DNA from: Spirochaetia bacterium
GTDB taxonomy: Bacteria; Spirochaetota; Spirochaetia; CADAEX01
Direction: 5' to 3'
Assembly (NCBI GenBank): GCA_045606105.1
Contig: JAZURI010000010.1
Location: 64,001-128,000, forward strand
Length of the DNA stretch: 64,000 nt
Below are positions 6,371 to 64,000 of the stretch, in pieces; positions within the stretch are counted from its first letter, which is position 1, and each line of letters opens with the position of its first letter. The notes under the pieces are model-generated. The model saw only the letters and a list, made by a program, of their open reading frames with translations. It ran no database searches and was not told the DNA's origin. A program made the position numbers and the translations under genes.

Positions 6371-7141
6371 TTACCTGTTTACCTTTTCAAGATATTCTTT
6401 AGTATACAGGGAATCAGGCTGTTTGTTAAGGGATGGGTTCTTGATTGTTACCATAGTTCTTTCATATTCGGTCTTTTCTCCCACCCTGCGGAATACCAGA
6501 TGATCCTGAATAACAATATTTACGGGAACCCAGCGGTCGGAAACCTTCTGATAGCTTGGAATGGCAGAGGTTCTCATAAGCTGCCCCGAAAGGCTGTAAT
6601 CCTCTATTTTCCTTACCAGCCTGTCCTCTGAGACCCAGATTTTTACCTTAGGGAATGAAACCTTGTTGTTTTTGGCTTTCAGAGTGAATACGGTACAGTC
6701 AAACTTACCCAGCTTCTGCTTGGCTATCGCTTCGATTTTGTAATCCTTGGAATAGCTGGAGCCTGTAAAGTCTGAAATACGGAAGCTTGAATTCTCGAAC
6801 CTGTCCTTGGCGCTGGTGAATGTGAAGCTTTTTCCCACAGGGTCGTAAAGCCAGAGGTTATCTCCCAGTTTCAGGTATCCCTTTCCCTTGTCTGCCACAG
6901 GCTGCAGGATAAGAACCAGGAACTTTTCATCCTTGTCTCGGCGGAACATGGCTGCCACAGTTGTGGAGGTGGATCCATCCGGGTCCTTCTTGACTATGGT
7001 ATATTCGGCCGAAAGGTCGGTTTCGTTGAAGGCAACCAGGCTGTCGACCTGCTTCAGCATCTCCTGATAATCGGTATGCTGGGCAGAAGCAAAGGCTGCG
7101 GAGCAAAGTATAAGTACTGCAATCAATAAAAATTTCTTCAT
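6371..7141 (-). CDS. Outer-membrane lipoprotein-sorting protein (LolA-like fold)
   Basis: Signal peptide, LILQPVADKGKGYLKLGDNLWLYDP motif typical of LolA-like proteins, adjacent to LolCE-type permeases. Confidence 0.8.
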   Translation of the reverse strand: MKKFLLIAVLILCSAAFASAQHTDYQEMLKQVDSLVAFNETDLSAEYTIVKKDPDGSTSTTVAAMFRRDKDEKFLVLILQPVADKGKGYLKLGDNLWLYDPVGKSFTFTSAKDRFENSSFRISDFTGSSYSKDYKIEAIAKQKLGKFDCTVFTLKAKNNKVSFPKVKIWVSEDRLVRKIEDYSLSGQLMRTSAIPSYQKVSDRWVPVNIVIQDHLVFRRVGEKTEYERTMVTIKNPSLNKQPDSLYTKEYLEKVNR

Positions 7142-7145
7142 GGCA

Positions 7146-8435
7146 TCATTCCTTTCTGAGAGCTTCCGCAGGAGGCATGAGAGAGGCCTTTCTTGCCGGG
7201 CCCCAGGCTGCAGCCACTACGGCAGCTATCATGAATACAAGATTAAGAAGCACTGTCTTCAGGCTGATAAAGAACTGAAGTCTTCCGTTTTCGGTAAACA
7301 TTCCGGCCACTGATATGCTTCGTAAATCAAACAACCCTATGAAATAAAAAGTTACAAGTCCGAGTATAAAGCCCAGTATTGAGGAGATTACCGCCAGCAT
7401 CACGGCTTCGTAGATAAATATCCTCTTTACAGCCCCGGCCTGCATTCCCATGGCCCGCATGGTTCCTATTTCCCTGGTTCTCTCGTAGACCAGAACCCGG
7501 TATGTGTTCAGGATTCCCATCATTACGATAAGGAGGAAAACAAACAGTACAAAATAGGTACATACTATAAAGGCATCCAGAAGGTTCTTTAGCTGCTCCA
7601 GCTGTGCATCCACCGACATGACTCCCGCAATCTCGTCGTTGTTGTGCCTGTTTCCGGATCTGTAGCTGCTGAAATCCTTTCTGGTTTTGATAGGGGGAAA
7701 AACATCCTTGGTTTCTGCCAGGGAGCTGCGGATCTTTTCGGTCAGCTTAGGGATATCGGCCCCCTCCTTGGCATACACGGCTATCTCAGTAGCCCAGTCA
7801 TGCTCCTTGTTCATCAGAAGGTTCAGGATTTCACGGTTCATATAAGCCGCATATCCGAAGATATTGGTCTCCCCGAAGATTCCCTTTACCACAAGATTGG
7901 CCACATTGTACTGCCCCTCGATGGTCTTTATGTAGATAAGTACATCGTCACCCATACGGGCCCCCAGAAGACGGGCCGCCTCCGTACTTATGATTATTCC
8001 GTTCTTTCCCTCTTCACCAAGCATGTTCTCCATGGCTCCTTCCACAAACGGAAGCCTGGAAAGCTCCTTTCCTTCGCTCTTGAAATCGGCACCGACAGCC
8101 CTGAGAAGCCTGATATAGTTTCCTCCGAAGAAGAGCCTGACCTCGCTGCCGTAATAGATGGTTCTCGGAGAGATGGTCCTTATAGGAAGCTTCTTCTCCT
8201 GAATGATTTTTATATATTCCTTTGAATCAGGAATGGACATTCCGGTATTTTCAAAGCCGTATACTATAACATGGCCTGAAAAATAACGGGCTGCCTTGGT
8301 CTTGATGGTTTCAAGGGCTCCGTATGAAAGACCTGTAAGAACGGTAATGAGCATGAAGCCCACCGCAATGGCCAGACCCATGAGGGCATATCTTTTTCGC
8401 TGAAGGAAAAGATTCCGGAGTGCAATACGGAACAT
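7146..8435 (-). CDS. ABC transporter permease, FtsX/LolC-E/MacB family
   Basis: IALRNLFLQRKR start, ERTREIGTMRAMG and C-terminal PARKASLMPPAEALR. Confidence 0.9.
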   Translation of the reverse strand: MFRIALRNLFLQRKRYALMGLAIAVGFMLITVLTGLSYGALETIKTKAARYFSGHVIVYGFENTGMSIPDSKEYIKIIQEKKLPIRTISPRTIYYGSEVRLFFGGNYIRLLRAVGADFKSEGKELSRLPFVEGAMENMLGEEGKNGIIISTEAARLLGARMGDDVLIYIKTIEGQYNVANLVVKGIFGETNIFGYAAYMNREILNLLMNKEHDWATEIAVYAKEGADIPKLTEKIRSSLAETKDVFPPIKTRKDFSSYRSGNRHNNDEIAGVMSVDAQLEQLKNLLDAFIVCTYFVLFVFLLIVMMGILNTYRVLVYERTREIGTMRAMGMQAGAVKRIFIYEAVMLAVISSILGFILGLVTFYFIGLFDLRSISVAGMFTENGRLQFFISLKTVLLNLVFMIAAVVAAAWGPARKASLMPPAEALRKE

Positions 8436-8436
8436 A

Positions 8437-9882
8437 TCAGCCCCTCCCCATTATTGCCACAGGCTGAATCTTTACGGCAATGGATACCGGATAGATCCAG
8501 GAAAGGGCACCCACCACCGCGGCTCCCGCAAAGTGCATGAGTATGTTTTTCAGGGTTACCGCAGGCTGAAGCCTGTCGCCGCCGAACATGGTTATGAGAA
8601 GATCGTTTTCCAGGGCAATTCCGCCGGAGAAACAGAGTGAGATTATCACACCCAGAATAATACCTATGGTGGAAGCCGCCAAAGTAAGGATCATGGATTC
8701 CGAAATGAAAAGGAGACTGATGAACGGCTTGCCTGCACCGATTCCGCGCATGGTTCCTATTTCGTAGCTTCTTTCCAGTACGGAAATGACAAGAGCGTTC
8801 ATGATAACCAGAACGGCCCCTATGATGATGAAGATAATACCGATATTGAATGCAGCCTGAAGGGCAAATACCATCTGGGCACTTATACCGGCTCCGCTTC
8901 TCCACCCTTTTATGTTTACGCTCCAGTGGTTCTCGTCCGCCATTCCGTCAAGCTCACTCCTGAGGGCTTTTGCATCGGATGTCTTGAAAAGGACAAAGCT
9001 CCAGGCTGTGGATGAGGCCTCTACTATGGCATCCCTGTCTGATGTATCTGCAAGGATGGTCTCTATGTCGCTGAGAGAAAAGGTTTCCTCTGTTTCGGAA
9101 ACCGTATCCTCTGCCTCGGCAAAAAGATCGTCGAAATCAAAGCTCTCTTCCTCTGTGTCGGATTCTGTTGTTTCTTCCTCCACCACATTTCCTGCAGTGT
9201 AGTCTATAAGTCCCCTTACCACGGTCGGATCGGCAAGCAGGATGGCATCAAAAGGGGCCCCCTTGTTTACATACCGGTGACATCCGGCAAAGGTTCCCTT
9301 CCTGATCTTGAAGCTGCCGTTGGAATAAAGGCTGAGCTTTATTTCGGTTCCCGGCTGAAGGGTGTGTCCCAGCTTTGCCTCTGCCTTCTGAAGAAGAGGC
9401 TCACATATAAAGATTCCGCCTGATGAAATATCGGCAGGATTTCCCCGTACTATCTCGATTTCCGGGCAAACGCTGAAATAGCTGTCCGGATCGATTCCGA
9501 ATACAGCGGCGGTATTCCTGAACTTCCCTGTCTCTACTGCGGCAGCGGCTGCAACCACCGGAGTATAGCTTTCGGCATTCTCCAGATATTCAAAGGCACT
9601 GCTTATCTCCGCATAGGCCGGAATAGAGGGGATAACCTCGTAGTCATCAACAACCGGTATCTCGTTTCCGAAAAGGCTGAACGAGGTTTCGCTTTCCGCA
9701 GCCAGCACCACATCTCCCGTAAGGCTGTTCACAAAGGAATCCCGTACTCCCTTGTCCGCACTTTCGAATACCGAGTTGGAAAAGAAAAGGAAGGCCACAC
9801 CTACGGCAATCAGTGTGCCGAGAAGGAGAGTCTTCCGCTTGTTGCGGTATAGGTTTCTAAGTGCCAGCTTCAGAATCAACAT
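8437..9882 (-). CDS. ABC transporter permease, FtsX/LolC-E/MacB family, with an acidic insert
   Basis: LALRNLYRNKRKT, ERSYEIGTMRGIG and YPVSIAVKIQPV. Contains an E/D/T-rich insert in the periplasmic domain. Confidence 0.9.
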   Translation of the reverse strand: MLILKLALRNLYRNKRKTLLLGTLIAVGVAFLFFSNSVFESADKGVRDSFVNSLTGDVVLAAESETSFSLFGNEIPVVDDYEVIPSIPAYAEISSAFEYLENAESYTPVVAAAAAVETGKFRNTAAVFGIDPDSYFSVCPEIEIVRGNPADISSGGIFICEPLLQKAEAKLGHTLQPGTEIKLSLYSNGSFKIRKGTFAGCHRYVNKGAPFDAILLADPTVVRGLIDYTAGNVVEEETTESDTEEESFDFDDLFAEAEDTVSETEETFSLSDIETILADTSDRDAIVEASSTAWSFVLFKTSDAKALRSELDGMADENHWSVNIKGWRSGAGISAQMVFALQAAFNIGIIFIIIGAVLVIMNALVISVLERSYEIGTMRGIGAGKPFISLLFISESMILTLAASTIGIILGVIISLCFSGGIALENDLLITMFGGDRLQPAVTLKNILMHFAGAAVVGALSWIYPVSIAVKIQPVAIMGRG

Positions 9883-10745
9883 TGTGCTTTATACTGCCTT
9901 ATAAATTCCTCGTAATCCTCATAGGGTGAGGTATAGGTAAAAATACGGTAGGTCGGTTTTTTAAGCCAGTAACCGTAAAGATTGTATTTTTCTGCCAGAC
10001 TTCCCTCTCCGAATGCTTCCTTCTTTATCGTGATGACAGGACAGCGCCGCTCCCCTATCAGATATTCTTCAGGAATATTGCTGCATATAAGGTCGGAAAC
10101 CCGGTCTATCCGTTCCCTGAACCTGTCCAGGTCCAGTTCCTTGAGAACCTTGATGAAATGCTCGAAGATAAAGGTAGGTGCTGTGCTTGGAATCTGACAC
10201 TGCTCCGCAAATTTCCTGTAGCGGGCCAGATTGAGATATGAACATACATCCTCTTCCACGAAATTTTTCCATTCATCCCGTTTTACACAAACCACGGCCA
10301 GCCCGATATAGGATGCAAGCTGCTTGTTGAGACAGGTACAGAATGCCTTTGTCCCTTTCGGAATATCGTAATAGGGAAAGGCACTTACAGCATCTGCTAC
10401 ACCGTTTTCCTTGTAGAAAGGGGTGGAGTTGCTGGATTCAAGCCTGCAGAACATCTCTGTCTCGGGAAAGGATTCATCCCGCAGGTAATTTTTCAGCATG
10501 CTTGTCCACTGTTCCCTGAAATGCCCTTCGTTTCCGATTATCTTAAGTCTGTAGTTCATGGAATACATGATGGCTTCGATTCCAACGGTGGCACTGCCGG
10601 GAATAAAGAGGACATCATAATCCTCAAGACCGAACTTAAGGGTAAAAAGTTCACGGAGCTCCTTGAACTGGTCAAAAAATTCCTTGTCCCTGTGAGAGCT
10701 GTGTATTCTTACGGAATCTGAAAAATATGCATTTGGCCCGAACAT
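9876..10745 (-). CDS. Compact PLP-dependent enzyme, class V aminotransferase (AEP transaminase/PSAT-like) fold
   Basis: FGPN, SHRDKEF, PGSATVGIEA, DAVSAF (PLP Asp), CLNKQLASYIGLAVV (Schiff-base Lys) and PSTAP. Confidence 0.72.
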   Translation of the reverse strand: MFGPNAYFSDSVRIHSSHRDKEFFDQFKELRELFTLKFGLEDYDVLFIPGSATVGIEAIMYSMNYRLKIIGNEGHFREQWTSMLKNYLRDESFPETEMFCRLESSNSTPFYKENGVADAVSAFPYYDIPKGTKAFCTCLNKQLASYIGLAVVCVKRDEWKNFVEEDVCSYLNLARYRKFAEQCQIPSTAPTFIFEHFIKVLKELDLDRFRERIDRVSDLICSNIPEEYLIGERRCPVITIKKEAFGEGSLAEKYNLYGYWLKKPTYRIFTYTSPYEDYEEFIRQYKAQC

Positions 10746-11980
10746 TATATTCCTTCTCTGACCTTAACCATGAAATCCGCAATCCTCTTTCCTGCTTCTC
10801 CCCTGTGCTGCCATGCCTGATTTCCTGCGGCTTCCCTTTTTTCCGCCACATCCGGATTTTCGGTCATCCCTTCAATAATATTTTTTATCTCTTTAAAATC
10901 CTCTTCCCTGAGCTCTCTCCCTATTTCCGGAAGAATCCTGAACTGCCAGAGCTCATGAGGAACCTTTCCCGCATCGTAAGGACGGGGATCAAAGCCGCCG
11001 ATAACCGAAAGAAAAGGCTTTTCACGAAGAAAAGCATAATCCAGGGTAATACTGGAAAAGTCAGAAATCATTATATCAGCTTTTGAAAGAGAAACAATAT
11101 TATCAGGGGCAAAATCCCACTTAATTTTACTGTTTCCCGCATATCTTTCCTGCAGACGGTCCAGCATCTCCTTTTCCACCGACCTTGACTGGGGATGGGG
11201 CCTTATTATCATGTCAAATCCGGCATCGGCCAGCGGATCCAGAAGCCTCTCGCCGTACCTTGAAAGAAGACCGCTGCTGCCCCAGCTGGGTGAAACCAGA
11301 ACCGTGAAGCCATCTTTTTCCCCGCAGACTTCCTTCATTACCGAATCAAGCTTTTCAGAAAGCACATCAAGATAAGGAGAGCCCACTGTCACCAGCTGCT
11401 TTTCAGGCAGGCCGCGGAGTTTTTCCAGATATCTGATATCCTCCTTCTGGTAATCTCCCGAAAGAAGAACGGAATCGAAATAGTCCAGTCCGTAGCGTTT
11501 GTAGAGAGTGGCATCATTTATCATATGAAGCACATGGGAATAATGCTTTACCCCCTTGGAGCGCTTGAGCTGAAAGACATCCAGTCCGGGAGTGGTCATG
11601 AGACAGACATCGGCCTCCAGAAGATTGAGCCTGGCAAAGGCCTTGTTGCCTGCACCGATATATTCACACCGCACATGCTGAAGTTTAAGGTCATTTATCG
11701 GGTCATCCTCCGCAGAGGTAAGATAAAGAAGAGGAAGCCCCCTTCTTTCAAACTCCTCCACCACCGGTTTAAAGGTATTCCAGTACTGCTTTCCCTCGCA
11801 GTAAACCACATAAGGGACAGTCTCCCCCTTCTTCTCCTTTCTGCCTCCGGCAAAAATAACCCGGAGCTTTATGAAAAAGGCCCTGGAAGCAAAGTACAGC
11901 AGGGCAAAGAGGCTGATGAATACGGAAAAGAGCATGCTTCCCGTACCCGGATCTATGTATAGAAGATTGAAGTCAGTCAT
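10745..11980 (-). CDS. CDP-glycerol glycerophosphotransferase (TagF/TagB) family protein with N-terminal membrane anchor
   Basis: HVLH, VSPSWG, IRPHP and ISDFSSITLDY correspond to the TagF family motifs (TWHG, APTWR, MHY, TDYSS). N-terminal YIDPGTGS followed by a TM helix. Confidence 0.82.
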   Translation of the reverse strand: MTDFNLLYIDPGTGSMLFSVFISLFALLYFASRAFFIKLRVIFAGGRKEKKGETVPYVVYCEGKQYWNTFKPVVEEFERRGLPLLYLTSAEDDPINDLKLQHVRCEYIGAGNKAFARLNLLEADVCLMTTPGLDVFQLKRSKGVKHYSHVLHMINDATLYKRYGLDYFDSVLLSGDYQKEDIRYLEKLRGLPEKQLVTVGSPYLDVLSEKLDSVMKEVCGEKDGFTVLVSPSWGSSGLLSRYGERLLDPLADAGFDMIIRPHPQSRSVEKEMLDRLQERYAGNSKIKWDFAPDNIVSLSKADIMISDFSSITLDYAFLREKPFLSVIGGFDPRPYDAGKVPHELWQFRILPEIGRELREEDFKEIKNIIEGMTENPDVAEKREAAGNQAWQHRGEAGKRIADFMVKVREGI

Positions 11981-14564
11981 TGAGCTTCTCCCAGTTTCCG
12001 GCCTTGTAGATATCCCTGTTTACCCGGTACACGGGAGTAAACCGGTAAGTGTTCCTGTTGTGCTCGTTGGCCTCCACGGGACCGGTACCCACCAGTATGC
12101 CGTTCTTCTTTCCGCTGCTGTCCAGCGGTTTCCCGGTAAACGGATTCAGAGGCTTCTCTTCAAAGCCGGATACTGCCAGCACCGGTACATCAGCCACGGT
12201 CATGAAGGTGCGGTCTGTCCTGCAGGGCCCCTCTGACCCGAAATCCTTGAAAAGGAGCAGTGAGCTGTAGGCATTTATAAGGTCGGGATCTCCCTCTGCC
12301 TCCAGAGCCTTGTTTTCCTGCCTGAAGAACCGGCCGTGGTCCGAGGCAATGATTATCCTGGTATTGTCCCAGACACCGTTTTCCCTCATCCAGTCCATCC
12401 ATTTTCCCAGCATCCTGAAGGTGGCTGCATTCACATGATAATGACGGAAAACATATTCGCCGCCAATGTTGTTCTCTCCCCGGTCGGTAATTTCCCGCTG
12501 CAGGGTATAGTCGGGATACTGCAGATATGCAGGCTCGTGGGTGGTATCGTTGTCTATGGCAAAATATGCAGAGCCCTCTCCTTCGGTATCGGAAAGCTCA
12601 CAAATATAATCCAGGGCAGAATACCAGTTTATGAGAACTGAATTCTCATCCCGCCCCTTGCTTTCGTCGGAGCTCCACCAGTCTCCGTGGTCGTAGATGA
12701 TTCCCCTGAGACATACCGGAGAAATACGGAAGAAGTTGAAGAACAGGAAATCCCTCTTTATAAAGTCGGAAAGGACAAAGCCCTCCAGCTCCATGCCGTG
12801 CTCCTTTCTCCACAGCTTCTCGTAGCGGCCGCTGAGATTGAGGGCATTTATATCATCGTCAAATATGGAGTTGTCGGGAATCCAGCTGAAGTTGGCCAGA
12901 GGAGCATCGGTAACGGTGATATCGAAGTCCTTGCTGCCGAAATAGGCAGGCAGCATCTTCAGGGATTCGTTATGCTTCTCCCGGAGTGTCTGATCTGTCC
13001 TTTTGTTGGAGTTTTCAGGAAGATATTCGTAGCCTCCGAAAAGGGCCGGGGCACAGAGAATGGTACAAGAGGAAGGTGAAACTGTGTTGGGGTAATGGAC
13101 AAAGCCAGAAAACTGCGCCGCCACCTCGGGCATCTCTTCAAAGATGGCAGGAACAAAGGAGCTGATTCCCCGGTCCAGCATCATGACAATAACATTTTTT
13201 CCCGTTCTGCTGAAATGGAATACCGGTTTTAACGAATCTTCGTTCCGGCTGTTTTCTCCGGAGGCAACTATTGCTTCCAGCCTGTGGAACTCACTGTTTA
13301 TCTTAAATATGTTGTACCCTGAAAAAGCGGTCAGGGAAAGAACCAGGACTACAGTCAGGGATTTTATGTACTTTTCCTTTTTCAGGCAGAAAACCGGAAC
13401 CAGAACTGCCGCCACAGCCGCAAATACAGCCATATCCACAGGGAATTTGGCAAGCTCGTTCTTTATCTTCAGTCCGCTTTCAAATTCAATTCCGTTCCCC
13501 ACCAGTACAGTACCGTAGTTGCCCGGAAAGGCATAGGTGTTCACCAGAGACCATACCACTGCGAAAACCATGAGAAAGGCCATGGCAGACTGTACCTTTT
13601 TCGAGAAAAGGAAGTAGATGGCAACAAGCCAGGCTGTTATGCCCAGAGTCTGGAAAAACGGAAATTTCACCAGGCTGAGGGGATTATCATAAGGTTCTAT
13701 AAATGAAAATTCGGCTACAGAGGAGCTTACAAGGGAGGTTGGTATAACTATACCTACCAGCAGGAGAAATGCACTGCAGACCAACATGAAGAGTCCAAGA
13801 CGGTTCCGGTCATTTTCAAGGAGAGGATTCAGAGGTTTTGAGAGAATATTTCCCGCTTTCTCCCTCAGCGCCGCAGCTGCAGCCGGCATTTCCGGAAGCC
13901 TGATCTTATAGCAGATATTCTTGAAAAGTGAAAAAACATTGTTAAGGGTCCAGTAAAGGACAAGTCCTGCCGGGGAATTGTAGAGCAGCACCAGAAACAG
14001 GGCCGCCATACCGTAGAGCTGCATCTTTTCCTTCAGCATGAAACCCTTTACGTATACTGCGCTGGCGACAATATTAATCAGGGTCATGGCTATAGGGAGA
14101 ATATTTATCGGAAAGCTTCCTATGGTAAAAAGACGGTCGGGACTTCCCAGATCTCGGAAAATCCAGAATTCAGCCCCTTTAAGCATCTCCAGATTTGAAA
14201 GGAAGGAATAGGCCGCAATGAAGAACGGAACCTGAATCATCAGGCTTATGGAGCTTCTGAGAGCCATTACGGGATGATAATGATTCTGCCTGTAGAAGGT
14301 GGTGAGAATCATATAGCGCTCATCCCCCTTGAACACAGCCTTGATTTCATCTATCTCCGGCTTGAAACGGGTCTGGATATCCCGCTCCTTCTGCTGCCAT
14401 CGCTCTGCAATGATGTAGAGAGGCAGGGAAAGGAAGCTTACTGCCAGGCTTACCGCAGCTATGGAAAGCCCGTAATTGTCAAAAAGCCGGTCGGTAAAAA
14501 GGAAGACCGTTTCTATGAGAAGCTCAATAGGATAGATAAAAACAAGATAGAGAAAATCTGCCAT
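11973..14564 (-). CDS. Fusion protein: YidC/Oxa1-like membrane domain, further TM segments, and an alkaline-phosphatase-superfamily (LtaS/sulfatase-like) domain
   Basis: The N-terminal ~220 aa align by eye with the core of yidC at 48276 (NYGLSI, IQVPFFIAAY, DLGSPD, GLVLYWT). C-terminal NVIVMMLD, NDTTHEP and IIIASDHG motifs. Confidence 0.8.
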   Translation of the reverse strand: MADFLYLVFIYPIELLIETVFLFTDRLFDNYGLSIAAVSLAVSFLSLPLYIIAERWQQKERDIQTRFKPEIDEIKAVFKGDERYMILTTFYRQNHYHPVMALRSSISLMIQVPFFIAAYSFLSNLEMLKGAEFWIFRDLGSPDRLFTIGSFPINILPIAMTLINIVASAVYVKGFMLKEKMQLYGMAALFLVLLYNSPAGLVLYWTLNNVFSLFKNICYKIRLPEMPAAAAALREKAGNILSKPLNPLLENDRNRLGLFMLVCSAFLLLVGIVIPTSLVSSSVAEFSFIEPYDNPLSLVKFPFFQTLGITAWLVAIYFLFSKKVQSAMAFLMVFAVVWSLVNTYAFPGNYGTVLVGNGIEFESGLKIKNELAKFPVDMAVFAAVAAVLVPVFCLKKEKYIKSLTVVLVLSLTAFSGYNIFKINSEFHRLEAIVASGENSRNEDSLKPVFHFSRTGKNVIVMMLDRGISSFVPAIFEEMPEVAAQFSGFVHYPNTVSPSSCTILCAPALFGGYEYLPENSNKRTDQTLREKHNESLKMLPAYFGSKDFDITVTDAPLANFSWIPDNSIFDDDINALNLSGRYEKLWRKEHGMELEGFVLSDFIKRDFLFFNFFRISPVCLRGIIYDHGDWWSSDESKGRDENSVLINWYSALDYICELSDTEGEGSAYFAIDNDTTHEPAYLQYPDYTLQREITDRGENNIGGEYVFRHYHVNAATFRMLGKWMDWMRENGVWDNTRIIIASDHGRFFRQENKALEAEGDPDLINAYSSLLLFKDFGSEGPCRTDRTFMTVADVPVLAVSGFEEKPLNPFTGKPLDSSGKKNGILVGTGPVEANEHNRNTYRFTPVYRVNRDIYKAGNWEKLND

Positions 14565-15312: not shown

Positions 15313-16779
15313 TTACCTGAACAGATATTTTTTCAGCTTGGAGAAGGCCTTGAGAGAACGCTTCAGATCGTCAAAATCGGTAAGCCCCACCTTGAGACGG
15401 TGCAGGATATAGCTTACCCTGAGATAATATTTCTTCCTGGCTATATTGCAGAATTCCACCATCTCCTCTGCACTGAGTCCCGGAAGATTCAGCAGTGTGT
15501 TGTGAGTGCCGTCCTCCTTGCAGTACTGGTCATATTCCAGGGTTAAATATCCTTTGGAACGGGCCAGATTGTAGGCGTCGGTTCCCGGATAAGGAATCAG
15601 CGGGAAAAACTGGGCTGTATCGGTATTGAGCTTAAGAGCCAGCTTCAGGGTATCCTCCATGGTCTGCTTTGTCTCTCCGTCGTTTCCCACCATATAGCAG
15701 GCATGGATCAGAAGTCCCGCCTTCTTGGCATTGGCCACATAGGAGTGAATCTGCTGAAGAGTGATTCCCTTCTTGATGTTATCCAGGATTTCCTGACTTC
15801 CGCTCTCGATTCCCGGAATGATGAGACGGCATCCCGCTTTCTTCATAAGCTTCATGGTTTCCAGATCGAGGGTGTTGACCCTGGCGTTGCAGAGCCATTT
15901 AAGCCTTTTGTTCAGCTTTTTTTCTATAAGGAGACGGGATATTTTCTTTACTCTCTCCTTGTTGATGGTAAAGGTGTCGTCTTCGATAACCACCTCTTTT
16001 ACATCGGGGAAGTTTGCGGCAATGTACTCAAATTCCTCCACCACGTTCTCAGGAGTTCTGGCCCTGAACTTACGGCCGTGCATTATCTGCGGATAGACAC
16101 AGAAGCTGCAGTAGCAGGGACATCCTCTTCCTGTGAAGATCTGCACGGAAGGATAGGTGGCTGCGGCAAAGAAATAGTCCCTTTCATCCAGATTTTCCTT
16201 TATGAATTCGGAAGCAAAAGGAATGTCATCCATATCGTGGATTACCGGCATGGCAGGAGTTCTGACAAACCCTCCCTCTTTTCTGACAAAAAGACCTCTC
16301 GATTCAGCTGGATCTCCCCCCTTATCAAGAGTATCTGCCAGTTCCTTTACGGAATAATCGAATTCTCCCATGGCAATGGCATCTGTTGCAGTGCTGTAGC
16401 CCATGGTTTCCTCAGGACAGGCTGTAGGATGAGTTCCTACCAAGGTAATATAGGAATACGGATAAAGCTCCTTAAGTGCTGTACCGAACATTACATCGCT
16501 CTTGATGGAAGGAGTACTTGTATTAAGGACAAAAAGAAGGTGTTCGTCGGAGGAGGCAAGAGCCTTTACCTTTTCGAGGGTCTGCTCCTCGTTGAGAGGC
16601 TTGGCCGGAGCATCGATAAAATCCACCCGGTGCCCGTGCTTCTGACAGTAGGCTGCCGCATAGATAAGCCACAGCGGATAATAAAGTGCGCCGCTTTTGG
16701 TTATGGCCGGGCTGCGGGACTCCCTGGAAAATTTTCCGTATTCTGCCTTGAAAGGCGGGTTTATGAAAACTATATGCAT
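15313..16779 (-). CDS. Cobalamin-binding radical SAM protein (HpnJ-like/class B)
   Basis: N-terminal B12-binding domain (YYPLWL, VGTHPT, GEFD), GRGCPCYCSFC CxxxCxxC motif, GIESGSQ and PYPGT. Confidence 0.88.
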   Translation of the reverse strand: MHIVFINPPFKAEYGKFSRESRSPAITKSGALYYPLWLIYAAAYCQKHGHRVDFIDAPAKPLNEEQTLEKVKALASSDEHLLFVLNTSTPSIKSDVMFGTALKELYPYSYITLVGTHPTACPEETMGYSTATDAIAMGEFDYSVKELADTLDKGGDPAESRGLFVRKEGGFVRTPAMPVIHDMDDIPFASEFIKENLDERDYFFAAATYPSVQIFTGRGCPCYCSFCVYPQIMHGRKFRARTPENVVEEFEYIAANFPDVKEVVIEDDTFTINKERVKKISRLLIEKKLNKRLKWLCNARVNTLDLETMKLMKKAGCRLIIPGIESGSQEILDNIKKGITLQQIHSYVANAKKAGLLIHACYMVGNDGETKQTMEDTLKLALKLNTDTAQFFPLIPYPGTDAYNLARSKGYLTLEYDQYCKEDGTHNTLLNLPGLSAEEMVEFCNIARKKYYLRVSYILHRLKVGLTDFDDLKRSLKAFSKLKKYLFR

Positions 16780-18239: not shown

Positions 18240-19266
18240 GTTTCATACTCTCTATAAGTCGGCTGATCATTCCATTCATATCTGTTTTTGCCCGCCAGCC
18301 CAGTTCTTCAAGCTTTGATGTATCAAGAACCACCTTGAGTACAGGATTATATCCAAGCTTTGTAACATCCTCTGCCAGATCAAAAATCACTTTGACGGAA
18401 GATGTCGGATCCTGTCTGCAGAACAATTCTGCCAGCTCTGCAATGGAAACAGCTGTTGTACTGTTTGCTATGTTATATGCTTCTCCGGCATTTCCACGGA
18501 AGAGAACTGTAAGGATTCCCTCTGCGGCATCTGCAGTATAACAATAATTGCGTACAGTTTCACCCTTAGTACGGAGAACTATATCCTTTTTTTCAATTAC
18601 ACTTCTGGCAAACTGAGCAAAAACCCTGTTGTCATTATAAGAAACACCGGCTCCGAAAGTCTGGCACAATCTCGCAACCTTTACAGGAATTCCGAACTGG
18701 ACGGCATAGGCCTTGCACAAGGTTTCGGCCATTCTCTTGCTTTCAGGATAACTGGATCTTACAGACATGGGATCTGTAAAACCGGAATCTGATTCTCTGA
18801 CAACTCTGATTCCGACTGAGGAATCAAACTGTCCGTAAACTTCAAGGGAACTCAGAAAAACAAAGCCCTTGATTGCTTTTTCCCTGCATTGCCTGAGAAG
18901 ATTTTCCGTTCCGAAGAGAATTGTTTCTATCGTATCAACCGGCTTATCAACAAAAGTTTTTGAGTCGGTGGTACCTGCCCCGTGGATTATGTAATCAACC
19001 TCTATCCCCGAAATATCCAGTTCCTTTATATCAGAGAACAAAGGGATAATATTAGCCGGAGGATTCTTCCCGAAAACTGCTTCAAATCTGCTTCTGCTTC
19101 TGCATGCTGCATATATTGTACAGGATTTACCGGCTATGGCTTTTACAAGCAGGGAACCGATCAACCCCGTTGCGCCGGTTATAAGCACTGATTTTCCGAT
19201 GCAGTTTTCAATAATACTGCTTTCAGAAAGGTTTTTTATGTCTTCTGCAAGAATGGTATTCATCAT
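18232..19266 (-). CDS. SDR NAD-dependent reductase/epimerase, likely the CDP-polyol reductase partner of the adjacent cytidylyltransferase
   Basis: ITGATGLIG, SSLEVYG and YPESKRMAE (YxxxK). Coupled to an IspD/TarI-like gene and licD. Confidence 0.8.
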   Translation of the reverse strand: MMNTILAEDIKNLSESSIIENCIGKSVLITGATGLIGSLLVKAIAGKSCTIYAACRSRSRFEAVFGKNPPANIIPLFSDIKELDISGIEVDYIIHGAGTTDSKTFVDKPVDTIETILFGTENLLRQCREKAIKGFVFLSSLEVYGQFDSSVGIRVVRESDSGFTDPMSVRSSYPESKRMAETLCKAYAVQFGIPVKVARLCQTFGAGVSYNDNRVFAQFARSVIEKKDIVLRTKGETVRNYCYTADAAEGILTVLFRGNAGEAYNIANSTTAVSIAELAELFCRQDPTSSVKVIFDLAEDVTKLGYNPVLKVVLDTSKLEELGWRAKTDMNGMISRLIESMKHD

Positions 19267-19979
19267 AATCCGAATATCTGCTGATTTTCCCGTACATCAT
19301 AGAGGGCACGGAAGGTATAGAAATCGGCAGGTGTTGTAATCTTTATATTGTCGGCTGTACCGTAAACCACAAAAAGCTCGTGGCCGTAGTGCTGCATAAG
19401 GGAAGCTGAATCTATCATATTTGTGCTTCCGTCGGCTATGGCCTTTTCATGGGCCTCTGTAAGCTGTCCCAGAACAAAGCACTGCGGAGCCTTGGCATGG
19501 AAGCATCTGCTTCTGTCCTTGATACTGCATATCTTGCTTCCGTCCAACTCGACTATGGTTTCCTGGGCCGGTACAACGGTAATTGCGGAACCCTTCTCCT
19601 TTACAGACCTGATACAGTCGGAAATAAGGGTTTCTGTTACAAAAGGGCGGACTCCGTCGTGAACCAGAACCACGGAATCGGCCGGAGCAAATCCCGCAAT
19701 GGCTCTGAGACCGTTATAAATCGACTGCTGCCCTGTTTCCCCGCCCGGAACCACGGCTCTGACCTTGATCATTCCGTACTGAGAAAGAAGCTTTTCCAGA
19801 TAAGGAATCCAGTCCTTGATACAGGCAATGACTATGTTGTCTATTTCAGGATGCTTCTGGAAGTTTTCCAGGGTATGGATAATAATTTCCTTGCCGTAAA
19901 GGCTGAGAAACTGCTTTGGCTTTGATCTGCTGTTCATCCTGCTGCCGGATCCTCCGGCAAATATAAGTACATTATTCAT
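19263..19979 (-). CDS. IspD/TarI-family polyol-phosphate cytidylyltransferase
   Basis: FAGGSGSRM, PKQFL, HDGVRP and NIKITTP. The glycan-locus context favours CDP-ribitol/arabinitol synthesis over the MEP pathway. Confidence 0.88.
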   Translation of the reverse strand: MNNVLIFAGGSGSRMNSRSKPKQFLSLYGKEIIIHTLENFQKHPEIDNIVIACIKDWIPYLEKLLSQYGMIKVRAVVPGGETGQQSIYNGLRAIAGFAPADSVVLVHDGVRPFVTETLISDCIRSVKEKGSAITVVPAQETIVELDGSKICSIKDRSRCFHAKAPQCFVLGQLTEAHEKAIADGSTNMIDSASLMQHYGHELFVVYGTADNIKITTPADFYTFRALYDVRENQQIFGL

Positions 19980-48275: not shown

Positions 48276-50027
48276 ATGGAAAAAAATACCCTTGTGGCTA
48301 TCATACTTTGCGTAGTGGTAATAACTGCGGGATATTTTGTTCAGGTAGTTTTTTTCCCTGTGGAGGAACCACCGAAAATCCAGCTGGAGGAGAGTGCTGC
48401 TGCCGAAGAACCAACAGTTCCGGGAGAGTCCCTGTCCCCTGTCCAGACTACGGCCTCTGTTTATGAAACTGACAGTACGGCCTATCAGGATATAGAAATA
48501 GAAACGGATGTATTCAGTGCTGTCTTCACCACCAAAGGGGGAAGTGCCAAGTCAATCAAGCTGAAGCATCATAAGGAATCTGACGGTCAGCCCCTTGATA
48601 TGATTCACAGGGAGGAGAGCAAGCTCAATGCCTTCGACCTCTATTTCGGCGATATCAACAGCCGTCCTCTCGATGCAGCCTTCAACTACAAGAAATACAA
48701 CAAAGGAAATGATACAGTCCTTGAGTTCTGGAAAGAGCTGGATATGACCATGGGAAGCGGAGTCCGCATTCCTGTAGAAATAAGAAAGAAGTATCTTTTC
48801 AAGCCGGACGAATATGTGGTGGAGCTTGAGGTTCAGCTTACCAACAAGGCCGGAAAGGCAGTTCAGTTCAACTACAACGGATTTGCATATTCCCTGGGAT
48901 TCGGTCCTCAGATCGGTCCTAACTATGAAAAGCTTGACGGAAAGTACGACTTCAGGAAGTACATAACCTTCAACGGCGAAAAGAAGAAAGAGGTGAAGCT
49001 CCCTAAGCCTGATACAAAGGAAGTGGACGCAAGAACCAGCTGGTCCGCAATTTCGGGAAAATACTTTGCAGTAATCGGTATTACGGATGCAACACAGTAC
49101 AAGACTGTTTTCTCAAGCATTGATCTTCCGGGTCTGGGGGATTCCTCCAGGATGTTCTTCTCAAGACCTGCTTTCAAGAGCGCCAATGTAATCGATACAT
49201 TCAGATTCTACATCGGACCTAAGAGCAGCAACGAGCTCAGAAGATACGACGAGGCTGAAACCAACGGCTTCGGCATGACAAAGATGGAGCTGGACAGGGT
49301 TCTGGATTCCGGAGCTATCCTGGGCTGGCTGCAGCAGCTGCTGAAATGGCTCCTGCTGGCATTCTACAACCTTATCCCTAACTACGGTGTGGCTATCATT
49401 CTTCTTACCGTTGTGGTTAAGATTGTTCTTTATCCTCTTACAAAGAAAAGCTTTGAATCATCAGCCAAGATGGCTGCCCTTTCACCTAAGATGAAGGAGA
49501 TTCAGGCAAAATATAAAGGAAACCAGCAGAAGATGAATTCGGAGCTTTCTGCCCTTTACAAGAAGGAAGGGGTTAACCCTATGAGCGGATGTCTGCCTAT
49601 TCTTCTCCAGATGCCGATTTTCTTCGCATTGTACGGACTCCTCAACAGCTTCTTCGAGCTGCGCGGATCGGGATTCATGGAGCCGTGGATTACAGACCTT
49701 TCACAGCCTGATTCCATTTTCAACTTCGCTCCTACATCCTACTTCTTCATCGGAAGCGATATCAGACTTCTCCCTATCCTCATGGCGGGAACCCAGATTA
49801 TCTCTTCCATGCTCATGCAGCCTGCGGCAGGTGCAACCGGCGGCAGCGGCGGTCAGCTCAACCAGATGAAGATGATGACTTATGCAATGCCTGTAGTATT
49901 CCTTTTCGTTCTTTATGATGTTTCATCCGGACTTCTCCTTTACTGGACAATGACAAACATCATATCCATAGGACAGCAGCTCTGGATCAACTACAGAAGC
50001 AAGAAGAAGGCAGAGGCAAAAGGCTGA
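48276..50027 (+). CDS. yidC: Membrane protein insertase YidC (housekeeping copy)
   Basis: Large periplasmic domain, NYGVAIILLT, GCLPILLQMP, WITDLS and GLLLYW, in the canonical operon. Confidence 0.97.
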   Translation: MEKNTLVAIILCVVVITAGYFVQVVFFPVEEPPKIQLEESAAAEEPTVPGESLSPVQTTASVYETDSTAYQDIEIETDVFSAVFTTKGGSAKSIKLKHHKESDGQPLDMIHREESKLNAFDLYFGDINSRPLDAAFNYKKYNKGNDTVLEFWKELDMTMGSGVRIPVEIRKKYLFKPDEYVVELEVQLTNKAGKAVQFNYNGFAYSLGFGPQIGPNYEKLDGKYDFRKYITFNGEKKKEVKLPKPDTKEVDARTSWSAISGKYFAVIGITDATQYKTVFSSIDLPGLGDSSRMFFSRPAFKSANVIDTFRFYIGPKSSNELRRYDEAETNGFGMTKMELDRVLDSGAILGWLQQLLKWLLLAFYNLIPNYGVAIILLTVVVKIVLYPLTKKSFESSAKMAALSPKMKEIQAKYKGNQQKMNSELSALYKKEGVNPMSGCLPILLQMPIFFALYGLLNSFFELRGSGFMEPWITDLSQPDSIFNFAPTSYFFIGSDIRLLPILMAGTQIISSMLMQPAAGATGGSGGQLNQMKMMTYAMPVVFLFVLYDVSSGLLLYWTMTNIISIGQQLWINYRSKKKAEAKG

Positions 50028-60998: not shown

Positions 60999-61911
60999 AT
61001 TGCCTGTAAAGCCGGCCCTGGAACCGGTTTCCGGCTGTCATCTTCTTTTTTACAAGGTCGTAGATATTGCCCTTGGACATGTACTTTCTGGGAGCAGCCC
61101 GGTCTGCCTCGTAGGTATCGCAGGTCAGCCTCATGATAATCATATCCTCCGGCAGCATTTCGATGCAGCTGATAAGATATTCTATGTATTTTTCCCTGGA
61201 AGGAACAGTCAGCTCCCCTTTAAGGTACTCCCGGAAAAGAACCGTGTTGTAGGTGATGTTCAGGTCGTGGAACTTGACTCCGTCGGGCTTTATACTGCTG
61301 ACATATCTGACAGACTGCTCCATGTCTCCGAAATCCTCTCCTGGAAGGCCCAGAATGAGGTGTGTGGCGATTTTTACCCCTTTCTGACGTAAGATATCAA
61401 ACGCCCTCTCATAGTCGTCCCTGGTGTGTCCTCTGTTGATTCTGGCCAGGGTCCTGTCGTTGGCCGACTGCAGCCCCAGCTCCACCCATACATCGAAGCC
61501 CTCCTTTTTATAGGAGGCCAGCAGATCGGCCTTTTCCTCATCAATGCAGTCGGGTCTGGTGGCTACTATGAGCTCGCTGAAATCGCCCAGGGAAAGGGCA
61601 TGGTCATATATTTTCCTGAGGTTTTCAGGGGTGTCGTATGTGTTTGAGAAGGCCTGGAAATAGAGAAGGAATACTTCGGCTCCGTAGCGCCGCCTGGTAA
61701 AGGCCAGCCCTCTGGTTATCTGCTCCTCTGTCATGGAGGCCTTGTCCAGGTATGATGCCCTGGCCCCCTGGGAGCTGCAGTAGATACAGCCCGGGCTGCT
61801 TCTGTCGGAGCCCCGGTTAGGGCATGAGAAGCCGCCGTCCACCGCTATCCTGTAAGCTTTTTTTCCGTATTTTTCCCGCAGATAGGCGGAATATGAACGA
61901 AAGGGCTCCAT
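60997..61911 (-). CDS. Radical SAM protein, YhcC/TIGR01212-like
   Basis: DGGFSCPNR...GCIYC, YFQAFSNTY, TRPDC, ELGLQS and INRGH. Start at MEPFRS. Confidence 0.9.
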   Translation of the reverse strand: MEPFRSYSAYLREKYGKKAYRIAVDGGFSCPNRGSDRSSPGCIYCSSQGARASYLDKASMTEEQITRGLAFTRRRYGAEVFLLYFQAFSNTYDTPENLRKIYDHALSLGDFSELIVATRPDCIDEEKADLLASYKKEGFDVWVELGLQSANDRTLARINRGHTRDDYERAFDILRQKGVKIATHLILGLPGEDFGDMEQSVRYVSSIKPDGVKFHDLNITYNTVLFREYLKGELTVPSREKYIEYLISCIEMLPEDMIIMRLTCDTYEADRAAPRKYMSKGNIYDLVKKKMTAGNRFQGRLYRQ

Positions 61912-61915
61912 AGGC

Positions 61916-62842
61916 TTATTTTTCGTGCTGGATCCTGGTGATGTCGTACGGAGTTCCCTGATATACATAGTAGTTTATCCAGTTTCCGTAAAGGAGATGG
62001 GCGCTTGATCTCCAGGATGTAACAGGCTCTTTCTCCGGGTCATTGTCCGGAAAATAGTTTTCCGGGATATGGGGATTGATTCCTGCCTTCACATCCCTTA
62101 AATATTCCTTTTTCAGTGTATCGGCATCATATTCGGCATGTCCCAGAAGAAAGATCTGTCTTCCCTTTTCATCTGCAACGGCATATATTCCTGCCGATTT
62201 GGAGGAAGCCATGATCCTGAGTCCCGGTATCTTTTCCACAGCTTCCCTTTCAATGGTGGTATAGCGGGAATGCGGTACGGAGAAGGTATCGTCAAATCCG
62301 CGGAACAGCATGGTGTTTCTGCTTTCAAGGGTATGTCTGTAGATTCCGGAAAGCTTTTTCTCCATGGCCACCTTAGGTATTCCGTAGTGGTAATAGAGTC
62401 CGGCCTGCGCACCCCAGCAGATATGGAGGGTGGAGTAGACATGGGTCCTGCTCCATTTCATTATCTCGCAGAGCTCCGGCCAGTAATCCACATCCTCGAA
62501 AGCAAGATGTTCCACCGGTGCTCCCGTGATGATAAGCCCGTCATAAAAATTTTCCTTCACATCCTCAAAGGTCTTGTAGAAGGCCAGCATATGCTCTGCC
62601 GGCGTATTCTTTGAGTTATGGGCGGAAGGGGCAATAAGCTCCAGGTCTATCTGAAGCGGTGTATTTCCCAGCACTCTGGCAAACTGAGTTTCGGTATCGA
62701 TCTTTATAGGCATGAGATTGAGAAACAGCACCTTAAGCGGTCTGATATCCTGGGACTGAGCCCTGGTTTCAGTCATGAAGAAGATGTTTTCTCTTTCAAG
62801 TATACTTGCAGCCGGCAGCTTGTTGGGAATTTTTATTGGCAT
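61916..62842 (-). CDS. metA: Homoserine O-acyltransferase (MetA family, likely acetyl-specific)
   Basis: MPIKIP, LNLMP, ITGAPVE, ICWGAQA and GHAEYD. Confidence 0.96.
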   Translation of the reverse strand: MPIKIPNKLPAASILERENIFFMTETRAQSQDIRPLKVLFLNLMPIKIDTETQFARVLGNTPLQIDLELIAPSAHNSKNTPAEHMLAFYKTFEDVKENFYDGLIITGAPVEHLAFEDVDYWPELCEIMKWSRTHVYSTLHICWGAQAGLYYHYGIPKVAMEKKLSGIYRHTLESRNTMLFRGFDDTFSVPHSRYTTIEREAVEKIPGLRIMASSKSAGIYAVADEKGRQIFLLGHAEYDADTLKKEYLRDVKAGINPHIPENYFPDNDPEKEPVTSWRSSAHLLYGNWINYYVYQGTPYDITRIQHEK

Positions 62843-62854
62843 TTCAGTTCCTTA

Positions 62855-64000
62855 TCAGATAATTTCCAGACCTTTTTCCAGGTCCTCAATCAGATCGTCG
62901 ACATTTTCAAGTCCTACGGAAAGGCGTACGAGACCTGCAGGAATACCGGCTTCCTTAAGCTGTTCTTCTGTAAGCTGGCGATGTGTTGCGGATGCCGGAT
63001 TAAGACAGCATGTCCTTGCATCTGCCACGTGGGTCTCGATAGCTGTCATTTTCAGTGTCTTCATAAGAAGCTCTGCAGCCGGTTTCCCCCCTTTTACCTC
63101 GAAGGAGATGACACCGCAGGAACCGTTAGGAAGATATTTCTGAGCAAGCTTGTAGTACGGATCTGAAGGGAGTCCGCAGTAGTTTACTTTTTCAATCTTA
63201 GGATGCTTAACCAGGAATTCGGCTACAGCCTGTGCATTTGAACAGTGGCGAGGCATTCTTACATGGAGGCTTTCCAGGCCAAGATTAAGGTAGAATGCAT
63301 GCTGAGGAGACTGGATTGAACCGAAATCCCTCATGAGCTGAGCTGTACATTTTGTAATGAATGCACCTGCCTGACCGAATTTCTCTGCGTATGTGATTCC
63401 GTGATAGCTGTCGTCCGGTTTGCAGAGACCCGGGAACTTGTCTGCATGGGCAAGCCAGTCAAATTTTCCGGAGTCTACGATTGCTCCGCCTACTGCTACT
63501 CCGTGTCCGTCCATATACTTGGTTGTGGCATGGGTAACGATATCTGCTCCCCATTCGAAAGGACGGCAGTTGATAGGGGTAGGGAAGGTGTTGTCCACGA
63601 TAAGAGGAACACCGTTCTTGTGAGCAATGTTTGCCCAGCGTTCGATATCGAATACTGTCAGAGCCGGATTGGCAATGGTTTCTCCGAATACAGCCTTTGT
63701 GTTAGGCTTGAATGCAGCCTGGATCTCTTCGTCCGAAGCATCCGGTGAAATGAAAGTGAAATCGATTCCCATCTTGCGCATTGTAACATTGAAGAGGTTG
63801 AAGGTTCCTCCGTAGATGGATGCTGAGGAGATGATGTGGTCTCCGTTGTTGGCGATATTGAAAATGGCAAAGAAGTTGGCAGCCTGTCCGGAAGAGGTGA
63901 GCATTGCGGCTGTTCCCCCCTCGAGTTCGGCAATCTTTGCAGCTACATAGTCGTTTGTAGGATTCTGGAGGCGGGTATAGAAATAGCCTGAAGCTTCGAG
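62855..64000 (-). CDS. metY: O-acetylhomoserine sulfhydrylase (5' end outside the window)
   Basis: YFYTRLQNPT at the window edge, SSGQAA, DNTF, HATTKY PLP Lys and RLSVGLE. Adjacent to metA. Confidence 0.93.
   Translation of the reverse strand, partial: LEASGYFYTRLQNPTNDYVAAKIAELEGGTAAMLTSSGQAANFFAIFNIANNGDHIISSASIYGGTFNLFNVTMRKMGIDFTFISPDASDEEIQAAFKPNTKAVFGETIANPALTVFDIERWANIAHKNGVPLIVDNTFPTPINCRPFEWGADIVTHATTKYMDGHGVAVGGAIVDSGKFDWLAHADKFPGLCKPDDSYHGITYAEKFGQAGAFITKCTAQLMRDFGSIQSPQHAFYLNLGLESLHVRMPRHCSNAQAVAEFLVKHPKIEKVNYCGLPSDPYYKLAQKYLPNGSCGVISFEVKGGKPAAELLMKTLKMTAIETHVADARTCCLNPASATHRQLTEEQLKEAGIPAGLVRLSVGLENVDDLIEDLEKGLEII

Follow-up and report, generated by a model that had tools for sequence, protein, structure and literature searches.

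A conserved YxDPGxGS transmembrane module that may couple cytoplasmic TagF-like enzymes to periplasmic alkaline-phosphatase-fold transferases in Spirochaetota

The window analysed here, 64,000 nucleotides (nt) of a Spirochaetia bacterium (positions 64,001 to 128,000 of the forward strand of contig JAZURI010000010.1, assembly GCA_045606105.1), carries on its minus strand a gene for a TagF-like protein whose first 50 or so residues are a self-contained and ancient membrane module. Directly upstream lies a gene for a large membrane protein in which a YidC-like domain is fused to transmembrane (TM) helices and an alkaline phosphatase (AP) fold. An earlier sequence-only reading of this stretch had reported that the TagF-like gene overlaps the stop of the YidC fusion by 8 nt, and this is what the coordinates give, since the open reading frames (ORFs) at 10745..11980 and 11973..14564 share positions 11973-11980. 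A GGGAG lies 7 nt upstream of the TagF-like ATG, within the 3' end of the fusion gene. The features of the two genes are as follows.

10745..11980, minus strand: TagF-like gene (P0001), a 411-residue ORF identified by PF04464, an AlphaFold2 (AF2) model and Foldseek matches to TagF
11973..11980, minus strand: 8 nt shared by the 3' end of the upstream fusion gene and the 5' end of the TagF-like gene, from the ORF coordinates
11960..11980, minus strand: short N-tail MTDFNLL, residues 1-7, too short for a signal peptide
11936..11959, minus strand: motif YIDPGTGS, residues 8-15, invariant in homologue alignments
11885..11935, minus strand: one hydrophobic helix, residues 16-32, in which the polar residue at motif +11 is conserved, from hydropathy and AF2
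11825..11884, minus strand: basic flank RAFFIKLRVIFAGGRKEKKG, residues 33-52, predicted from sequence to be cytoplasmic
10748..11818, minus strand: cytoplasmic GT-B (TagF-like) catalytic domain, residues 55-411, from AF2, Foldseek and invariant segments
11973..14564, minus strand: partner gene (P0002), 863 residues, with a YidC-like domain (residues 1-228), five TM helices (245-440) and an AP-fold periplasmic domain (441-863), from Pfam, AF2 and Foldseek

The translated TagF-like protein begins MTDFNLLYIDPGTGSMLFSVFISLFALLYFASRAFFIKLRVIFAGGRKEKKGE, and its hydropathy peaks over residues 13-31. The sequence-only reading had described this N terminus as a short acidic tail, one helix and a basic flank; the helix and the flank stand, and the acidity of the tail comes down to Asp3 plus Asp10. 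The reading frame extends no more than 20 codons upstream of the motif Tyr before it closes, and no start codon precedes the ATG in it, so the window copy cannot carry a signal peptide.

The body of the protein resembles the TagF/TarL/Cps3D family in its Pfam match, its GT-B fold and recognisable motifs in the C-terminal half. The PF04464 (Glyphos_transf) match, at residues 182-325, scores 26 bits against a cut-off of 22.1, and other module-bearing members score between 16 and 42 bits. In the AF2 model (pLDDT 85, pTM 0.81) a long helix spanning residues 11-44 is followed by the GT-B fold, and Foldseek against the PDB placed TagF chains (3l7l and related) at all of ranks 1 to 10 (E 7.5e-13 to 7e-12, TM 0.54-0.59), with TarL and Cps3D lower down (8qoy and 8va1 are also listed) and generic GT-B enzymes and epimerases close behind. 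The segments SPSWG, RPHPQS and SDFSS..LDY and the residues H146, H149, H152 and H262 are invariant across a 30-member alignment of the domain. In sequence, however, the window protein is very divergent from the family. NCBIfam yielded no matching model for it, a profile of 30 TagF-like members found no relative among PDB sequences at E<=1 (the sole match, to Epsin-3 at E 0.7, is a chance one), and alignment of one family member (P0322) to the motifs in TagF 503-646 was weak (E 0.06). It also differs in carrying an N-out (N terminus outside) TM module, where the family otherwise consists of peripheral membrane proteins, and in having a YidC + AP-fold membrane protein as its conserved partner. 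The usual arrangement for the TagF/TarL family is TagGH-type export. As a matter of context, an IspD/ribitol-5-phosphate cytidylyltransferase-like gene at 19263-19979 shares the operon direction of the TagF-like gene.

In the partner protein, Pfam identifies PF02096 (60KD_IMP/YidC) at residues 31-218 with 79 bits, together with a weak Sulfatase match of 16.6 bits that falls below the cut-off. Foldseek matches of its AF2 model (pLDDT 88) are PbgA/YejM, full-length MCR-1, LtaP/LtaS and EptA and, separately, the YidC structure 3wo7 from Bacillus halodurans (TMt 0.70). Five residues, D464, T501, H676, D742 and H743, are invariant in 29 homologues and would fit an active AP-type site with a Thr nucleophile. 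When the YidC-like part is aligned by sequence to solved YidC proteins, their groove Arg falls opposite Ser43 of the fusion. The genome also encodes a separate housekeeping YidC (window 48276-50027, plus strand), which scores 217 bits against 84 bits for the fused copy; the latter is therefore an extra paralogue. A complex prediction of the full fusion with TagF-like residues 1-60 scored 0.01 (mark 0.32) and was counted neither for nor against any reading.

The N-terminal motif is conserved far above chance. In a protein search for homologues, 8000 candidates were scored and 7476 reached E<=1e-3; 120 were listed, at 55-100% identity, and among these listed matches YIDPGTGS is exact in 120 of 120, always within the first 20 or so residues. 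Lack of conservation among homologues, which the sequence-only reading had named as grounds for giving up its proposal, is thus not what was found. Across the whole 1.46-Mb genome (99% complete), a loose pattern matches the motif at a single place. Residues Y8 to S15, F18 and S19 are invariant in the 30-member alignment (A1), and Y, D, P, G, G and S of the motif remain so in the broad alignments (A3 and A5). The polar residue at motif +11 is Ser19 in the window copy and Gln or Tyr in other branches, Gln being nearly invariant in stand-alone peptides, and a Lys or Arg is conserved 18 residues past the motif Ser. We also ran a 38-column profile covering the motif and the helix against 1.84 billion representative proteins (clusters at 50% identity); 8300 clusters reached E<=1e-3, of which 247 reached E<=1e-10. 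The best 150 of the 8300, almost all of them 39-181 residues long, have Y[ILV]DPG[TSA]GS in 150 of 150 cases (YIDPGTGS 76, YLDPGTGS 51, YLDPGSGS 9, YIDPGSGS 7, YIDPGAGS 4 and YVDPG[ST]GS 3); in this set Tyr and the final Ser never vary, and the middle Thr/Ser can be replaced by Ala.

Against Pfam and NCBIfam, none of 35 stand-alone peptides passed a curated cut-off, and the ESM Atlas returned only 'hypothetical protein' clusters for the one submitted. Literature searches with the motif strings found no paper naming the module, the works listed as containing the strings all concerning unrelated subjects (PKA, a chromoprotein, ovalbumin and the KDEL receptor), and further searches found none joining YidC, sulfatase, glycerophosphotransferase and Treponema, or TagF-like with LtaS-like proteins. 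The idea that the motif is an exosortase- or sortase-type sorting signal was dropped, as the stand-alone peptides have no cargo outside.

The orientation of the module can be read from its relatives. Among 120 longer module carriers, 108 have an AxA-type site directly before the Tyr after a presequence of at least 14 residues; of the others, six have a short N-tail like the window copy, five a long presequence that lacks an AxA-type site, and one lacks the exact motif. Signal peptides ending in AxA right before the Tyr also occur in many of the best 150 representatives and of the stand-alone peptides. Since a cleavable signal peptide puts the residue after its cleavage site outside the membrane, the cap formed by the motif would be periplasmic. 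Between the motif Ser and the conserved Lys/Arg, some 17 residues of helix are predicted to span the membrane, with the part that follows in the cytoplasm. The N-out topology proposed in the sequence-only reading is thus supported, on a better basis than charge counting.

These observations bring in a simple alternative, namely that the segment is nothing but a topogenic membrane anchor, in which the motif directs insertion or signal-peptidase processing and makes no partner-specific contact. Such an account gains from the position of the motif, exactly at the predicted cleavage site, and from the fact that TagF-type enzymes, by general knowledge, work at the membrane. However, signal peptidase needs no fixed sequence after the site it cleaves, forms lacking a signal peptide retain the motif, and the invariant eight-residue cap is left unexplained. 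The module also persists as a gene of its own, where there is no enzyme for it to anchor, and its gene neighbourhood is tight and specific. We consider a pure anchor quite improbable.

The distribution of the module reaches well beyond the TagF-like form. A 42-column profile of the N terminus, searched in a sample of 401 Spirochaetota genomes, matched in 83 of them, mostly in frames of 400-450 residues and in seven cases in frames of 74-107 residues. These small frames are separate genes with an AxA signal peptide before Y[IL]DPG[ST]GS, one helix and a basic tail, and distant TagF-like homologues have the same signal peptide preceding the motif. Overall, stand-alone module proteins measure about 40-110 residues; some short entries among the best 150 representatives are fragments of TagF-like genes, and those with Gln at +11 are genuine small proteins. 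The majority of longer carriers are PF04464 proteins, some of them labelled Photobacterium, Desulfovibrio or deltaproteobacterium. Other fusions join the module to different enzymes: in P0277 and P0278 to a NoeA-like kinase/methyltransferase family of about 460 residues (local hidden Markov model (HMM) E 1.7e-213 for P0278), and in P0290 (494 residues) to a cytidylyltransferase-like domain (54 bits) and a phosphoenolpyruvate (PEP) mutase (169 bits). A single protein (P0339, 579 residues) has the module in frame with a full-length NoeB-like AP membrane protein (E 2.6e-170, HMM positions 5-506 of 515). Among proteins longer than 720 residues that share the N-terminal words of the window copy, four candidates were found and none scored, which is weak evidence that a long fusion of the TagF-type module does not occur.

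The TagF-like form has a consistent neighbour. In 75 of 80 loci (L001-L080) a homologue of the YidC + TM + AP fusion, complete or cut by a contig end, lies on the same strand. A complete fusion ORF ends 5-141 nt (median 17) upstream of the Tyr codon in 47 of 85 TagF-like genes; it lies directly downstream in 10 and elsewhere in the locus in 14, and 14 have none. In many loci a single TagF-like gene is accompanied by two or three fusion paralogues in tandem. A TM + AP profile was searched in the same 401 genomes and combined with the 42-column module profile, with the following outcome.

67 of 401 genomes: TagF-type module and fusion-type AP protein
5 of 401 genomes: module only
2 of 401 genomes: fusion only (86% and 96% complete assemblies)
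327 of 401 genomes: neither

Of the 74 genomes having either component, 67 therefore have both. The functional coupling to the YidC fusion that had been proposed from the sequence finds support in these two results, the synteny in 75 of 80 loci and the 67 genomes with both components beside 7 with either alone.

The module-only genomes contain a split form of the system. Four of the five were examined (G313, G400, G394 and G322, loci L122-L125), G233 not having been fetched. A signal-peptide-bearing TagF-like gene adjoins a membrane protein of about 600 residues in all four, and a stand-alone YidC-like gene (231-238 residues) is adjacent in three, none having been found in L122. The membrane protein has a Sulfatase match in L122 and L123, and in each of the three loci scanned, L122-L124, it matches a NoeB-like HMM (E 1e-19 to 1e-23). 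In another subtype, a module of LLLY type adjoins a fusion subtype of 907-975 residues in three of three loci (L119, L120 and L126). Module subtypes thus travel with partner subtypes. L120 belongs to a genome of the same genus as ours (G240) and holds a second, divergent pair, a 975-residue YidC-AP fusion and a 407-residue TagF-like gene with YLDPGTGS, after which come genes for YfhO and a Wzx-GT2 fusion.

The stand-alone form keeps different company. We collected 80 metagenome loci with a stand-alone peptide, 66 of which have a downstream ORF, and in 49 of these 66 the next ORF belongs to the NoeA-like family of about 460 residues, which the ESM Atlas groups with NoeA-like class I methyltransferases. 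The third gene has a Sulfatase (PF00884) match at E<=1e-3 in 19 of 27 cases tested, and in two further metagenome loci a sulfatase gene follows the peptide directly. The tiny stand-alone peptides near alkaline-phosphatase-family genes that the sequence-only reading had mentioned are therefore real. The AP proteins of these cassettes have four to six N-terminal hydrophobic segments. In a second phylum the module occurs in 8 of 301 genomes; six of these occurrences are small peptides, each of them followed by the ~460-residue family. A YidC HMM matched in only one of the 80 stand-alone loci, and there to a 573-residue housekeeping-like YidC; stand-alone cassettes lack the YidC paralogue, and the YidC-like domain is specific to the TagF-like branch. 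The universal partner of the module is therefore the five-TM AP-fold protein and not YidC.

The gene order of the stand-alone cassette has a published counterpart. A 2022 survey describes Lani_1193 as a domainless hypothetical protein of about 65 residues, Lani_1194/NoeA as a predicted atypical kinase plus methyltransferase, and Lani_1195/NoeB as an alkaline-phosphatase fold similar to YejM and EptA, with Lani_1193 homologues in 65% and Lani_1195/NoeB in 38% of 816 neighbourhoods (PMC9758233). The triad of small protein, kinase-methyltransferase and AP-fold protein has thus already been published; the motif is not mentioned in the accessible part of that survey (PMC9758233). Stand-alone relatives of our module stand in exactly the same gene order, and Lani_1193 would, we infer, be the motif peptide. 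The window differs from that triad in two respects. A TagF-like domain fused to the module takes the place of the kinase-methyltransferase, and the AP protein belongs to another subfamily, carrying a YidC-like domain and giving no match to the NoeB-like HMM.

The recurrence of a YidC-like domain in the TagF-like branch raises the possibility that the segment enters the neighbour's YidC-like groove, either as a client or to stay there permanently, with the paralogue inserting or holding the N-out helix. Pf3 coat and M13 procoat are YidC substrates in which a short acidic N-region is translocated ahead of a single helix flanked by basic residues on the inner side; a cleavable signal peptide may or may not be present. 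The TagF-like protein has the architecture of a YidC-only N-out substrate (a short, slightly acidic N-tail, one helix and positive charges inside), and the signal-peptide forms resemble M13 procoat, although the module, unlike these coat proteins, is part of an enzyme system or encoded beside one. Docking is also favoured by the YidC-like domain being fused or adjacent to the partner across the whole TagF-like branch, by its being additional to the housekeeping copy, and by the overlapping start and stop codons. However, the stand-alone cassettes share the module in the absence of the paralogue, Ser43 of the fusion aligns with the groove Arg of YidC, and TagF-like forms that have a signal peptide (L119, L120 and L122-L126) still have a YidC-like partner. 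Because these forms keep the partner, the paralogue tracks the TagF-like cargo and not the loss of the signal peptide, and the idea that it merely compensates for a missing signal peptide was rejected. We therefore consider an occupied groove unlikely as an account of the segment; docking has a low chance of holding for the TagF-like branch and cannot be the general function of the module.

Three components are kept together in all branches: the cap and helix module, a cytoplasmic phospho-headgroup enzyme, and a five-TM AP-fold enzyme with a periplasmic catalytic domain. The branches differ in the cytoplasmic enzyme, which is TagF-like in some and a kinase-methyltransferase or a cytidylyltransferase-PEP mutase in others; the module either forms part of this enzyme or comes from the gene immediately preceding it. 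We favor, with about even confidence, a model in which an N-out TM module couples the cytoplasmic phospho-headgroup enzyme to the periplasmic AP-type transferase. The module would consist of a periplasmic cap, Y-[ILV]-D-P-G-[TSA]-G-S, a helix of about 17 residues in which one polar residue is conserved, and a basic amphipathic stretch in the cytoplasm. We envision that it puts the TagF-like catalytic domain in the cytoplasm, where the cytoplasmic end of the module would carry or recruit the enzyme, and that helix and cap may pack against the membrane domain of the co-encoded LtaS/EptA-type enzyme. The cytoplasmic step would use a CDP-activated polyol-phosphate or related headgroup, the periplasmic step would transfer the phospho-group onto an envelope glycan, and the module would hold both steps in one trans-membrane unit. 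Insertases have been claimed to scramble lipids in work available to us in part (10.1101/2023.09.01.555937), and we speculate on that ground that the YidC-like domain may move the lipid-linked product of the TagF-like enzyme across the membrane.

Several points weigh against this coupling model. No fusion lies within reach in L008, L027, L048, L064 and L074, of which L027 and L074 have full 10-kb flanks, and in 8 of the 27 stand-alone cassettes tested the third gene has no Sulfatase match. The loci L001-L080 were collected with a motif-containing pattern, which makes them usable for synteny and their possession of the motif not independent, and the co-occurrence counts overstate the support, as related genomes are not independent, although the pattern as such is plain. 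P0339 is known from one metagenome contig of 1.9 kb, on which two genes may have been merged. Motif conservation, modularity, the signal-peptide evidence for the N-out orientation and the close genomic linkage to AP-fold membrane proteins are observed; the physical contact, the contact partner of the cap and the chemistry are inferred. Finally, because a plain anchor needs no invariant eight-residue cap, the role of the module is probably more specific than tethering.

Among the closest known systems is DltX, which also has a short invariant Tyr motif at the extracytoplasmic end of one helix, occurs stand-alone or fused, and functions between activation in the cytoplasm and a transferase on the outer side of the membrane, according to the portion of the literature consulted (PMC12148441). 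DltX differs in that its motif, FXYXXF, is C-terminal, where that of the window module is N-terminal and of other sequence, and in that its partners are MBOAT and SGNH proteins, where those of the module are AP-fold and YidC-like proteins; family scans of the neighbours turned up neither MBOAT nor SGNH families. DltX serves acyl transfer, whereas the chemistry of the module would be phosphoryl transfer. By analogy, the cap could be a covalent shuttle, its invariant Tyr or Ser transiently carrying a phospho-headgroup to or from the Thr nucleophile of the AP enzyme. The invariance of both residues in the best 150 representatives, alongside a middle position that tolerates Ala, speaks for such a carrier, as do an apparently intact AP-type site in the partner (D464, T501, D742 and H743) and a motif that, like that of DltX (PMC12148441, as far as that source was available), sits at the extracytoplasmic helix end of either a microprotein or a fusion. 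A cytoplasmic TagF active site, however, cannot reach a periplasmic Tyr, and the neighbourhood encodes no MBOAT-like conduit. Nor can loading by the attached enzyme be a general mechanism, because other fusion partners of the module are a PEP mutase (an isomerase) and a kinase-methyltransferase. We found no precedent for a phospho-Tyr or phospho-Ser shuttle, with no literature search aimed at one. We regard a shuttle as very improbable. An extended form of it, in which Tyr/Ser of YxDPGxGS would pass polyol-phosphate, phosphonate or methyl-phosphate from a membrane-embedded donor to the AP enzyme and the Arg-less YidC-like domain would serve as conduit or scramblase in the TagF-like branch, is likewise a long shot. 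If true, it would be a new and widespread route for phospho-decorations across the cytoplasmic membrane, and a shuttle would give NoeA/NoeB a mechanism.

Another comparison is BcsF from cellulose synthesis in E. coli, a peptide that crosses the membrane once, recruits cytosolic BcsE through its cytosolic tail and shares an operon with BcsG, an AP-fold phosphoethanolamine transferase (PMC11470070). What we could consult of that work reports no YxDPGxGS motif, and in the published structure BcsF does not touch BcsG (PMC11470070). BcsF and our module are unrelated in sequence.

The remaining genes of the window operon recur only in its closest relatives (L001-L003 and L070). They comprise GT2, B12-radical SAM, HAD, LicD, SDR and IspD-like genes, an FtsX/MacB pair and a LolA-like gene. 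The B12-binding radical SAM gene (15313-16779, minus strand) lies in a polysaccharide locus between HAD phosphatase and GT2 genes and scores 369 bits against the HpnJ model, below its cut-off; PhpK-type P-methyltransferases also match, which hints at an unusual methylated or phosphonate-like substituent. In two loci a nucleotidyltransferase + aminotransferase fusion adjoins a motif-bearing TagF-like gene (L123 4243-6075 and L129 4031-5842). Such fusions activate aminoethylphosphonate, so some members of the family may handle phosphonates. Downstream of the TagF-like gene, a 289-residue ORF with no family match (9876-10745, minus strand) has a start that overlaps the TagF-like stop by one base and is conserved only in L001-L003. 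Two FtsX/MacB-type permease genes and the LolA-like gene (6371-9882, minus strand) come directly after the locus and recur in L001-L003 and L120/L121. Just upstream of the window, at 61317-63247 of the contig (C10), are ORFs of 423 and 430 residues with weak Sulfatase matches.

The module described here is very common and strictly conserved, yet has no curated family model. It links divergent spirochaete TagF-like enzymes, YidC paralogues fused to LtaS/EptA-type enzymes, and the NoeA/NoeB-type cassette, a nodulation host-range determinant known since 1995, each of which lacks a mechanism. Its eight-residue cap offers a small, mutable handle for testing coupling. If the module does couple the two steps, it would bear on how unusual phospho-decorations such as ribitol-phosphate, glycerol-phosphate, aminoethylphosphonate and methyl-phosphate reach envelope glycans outside the cytoplasmic membrane.

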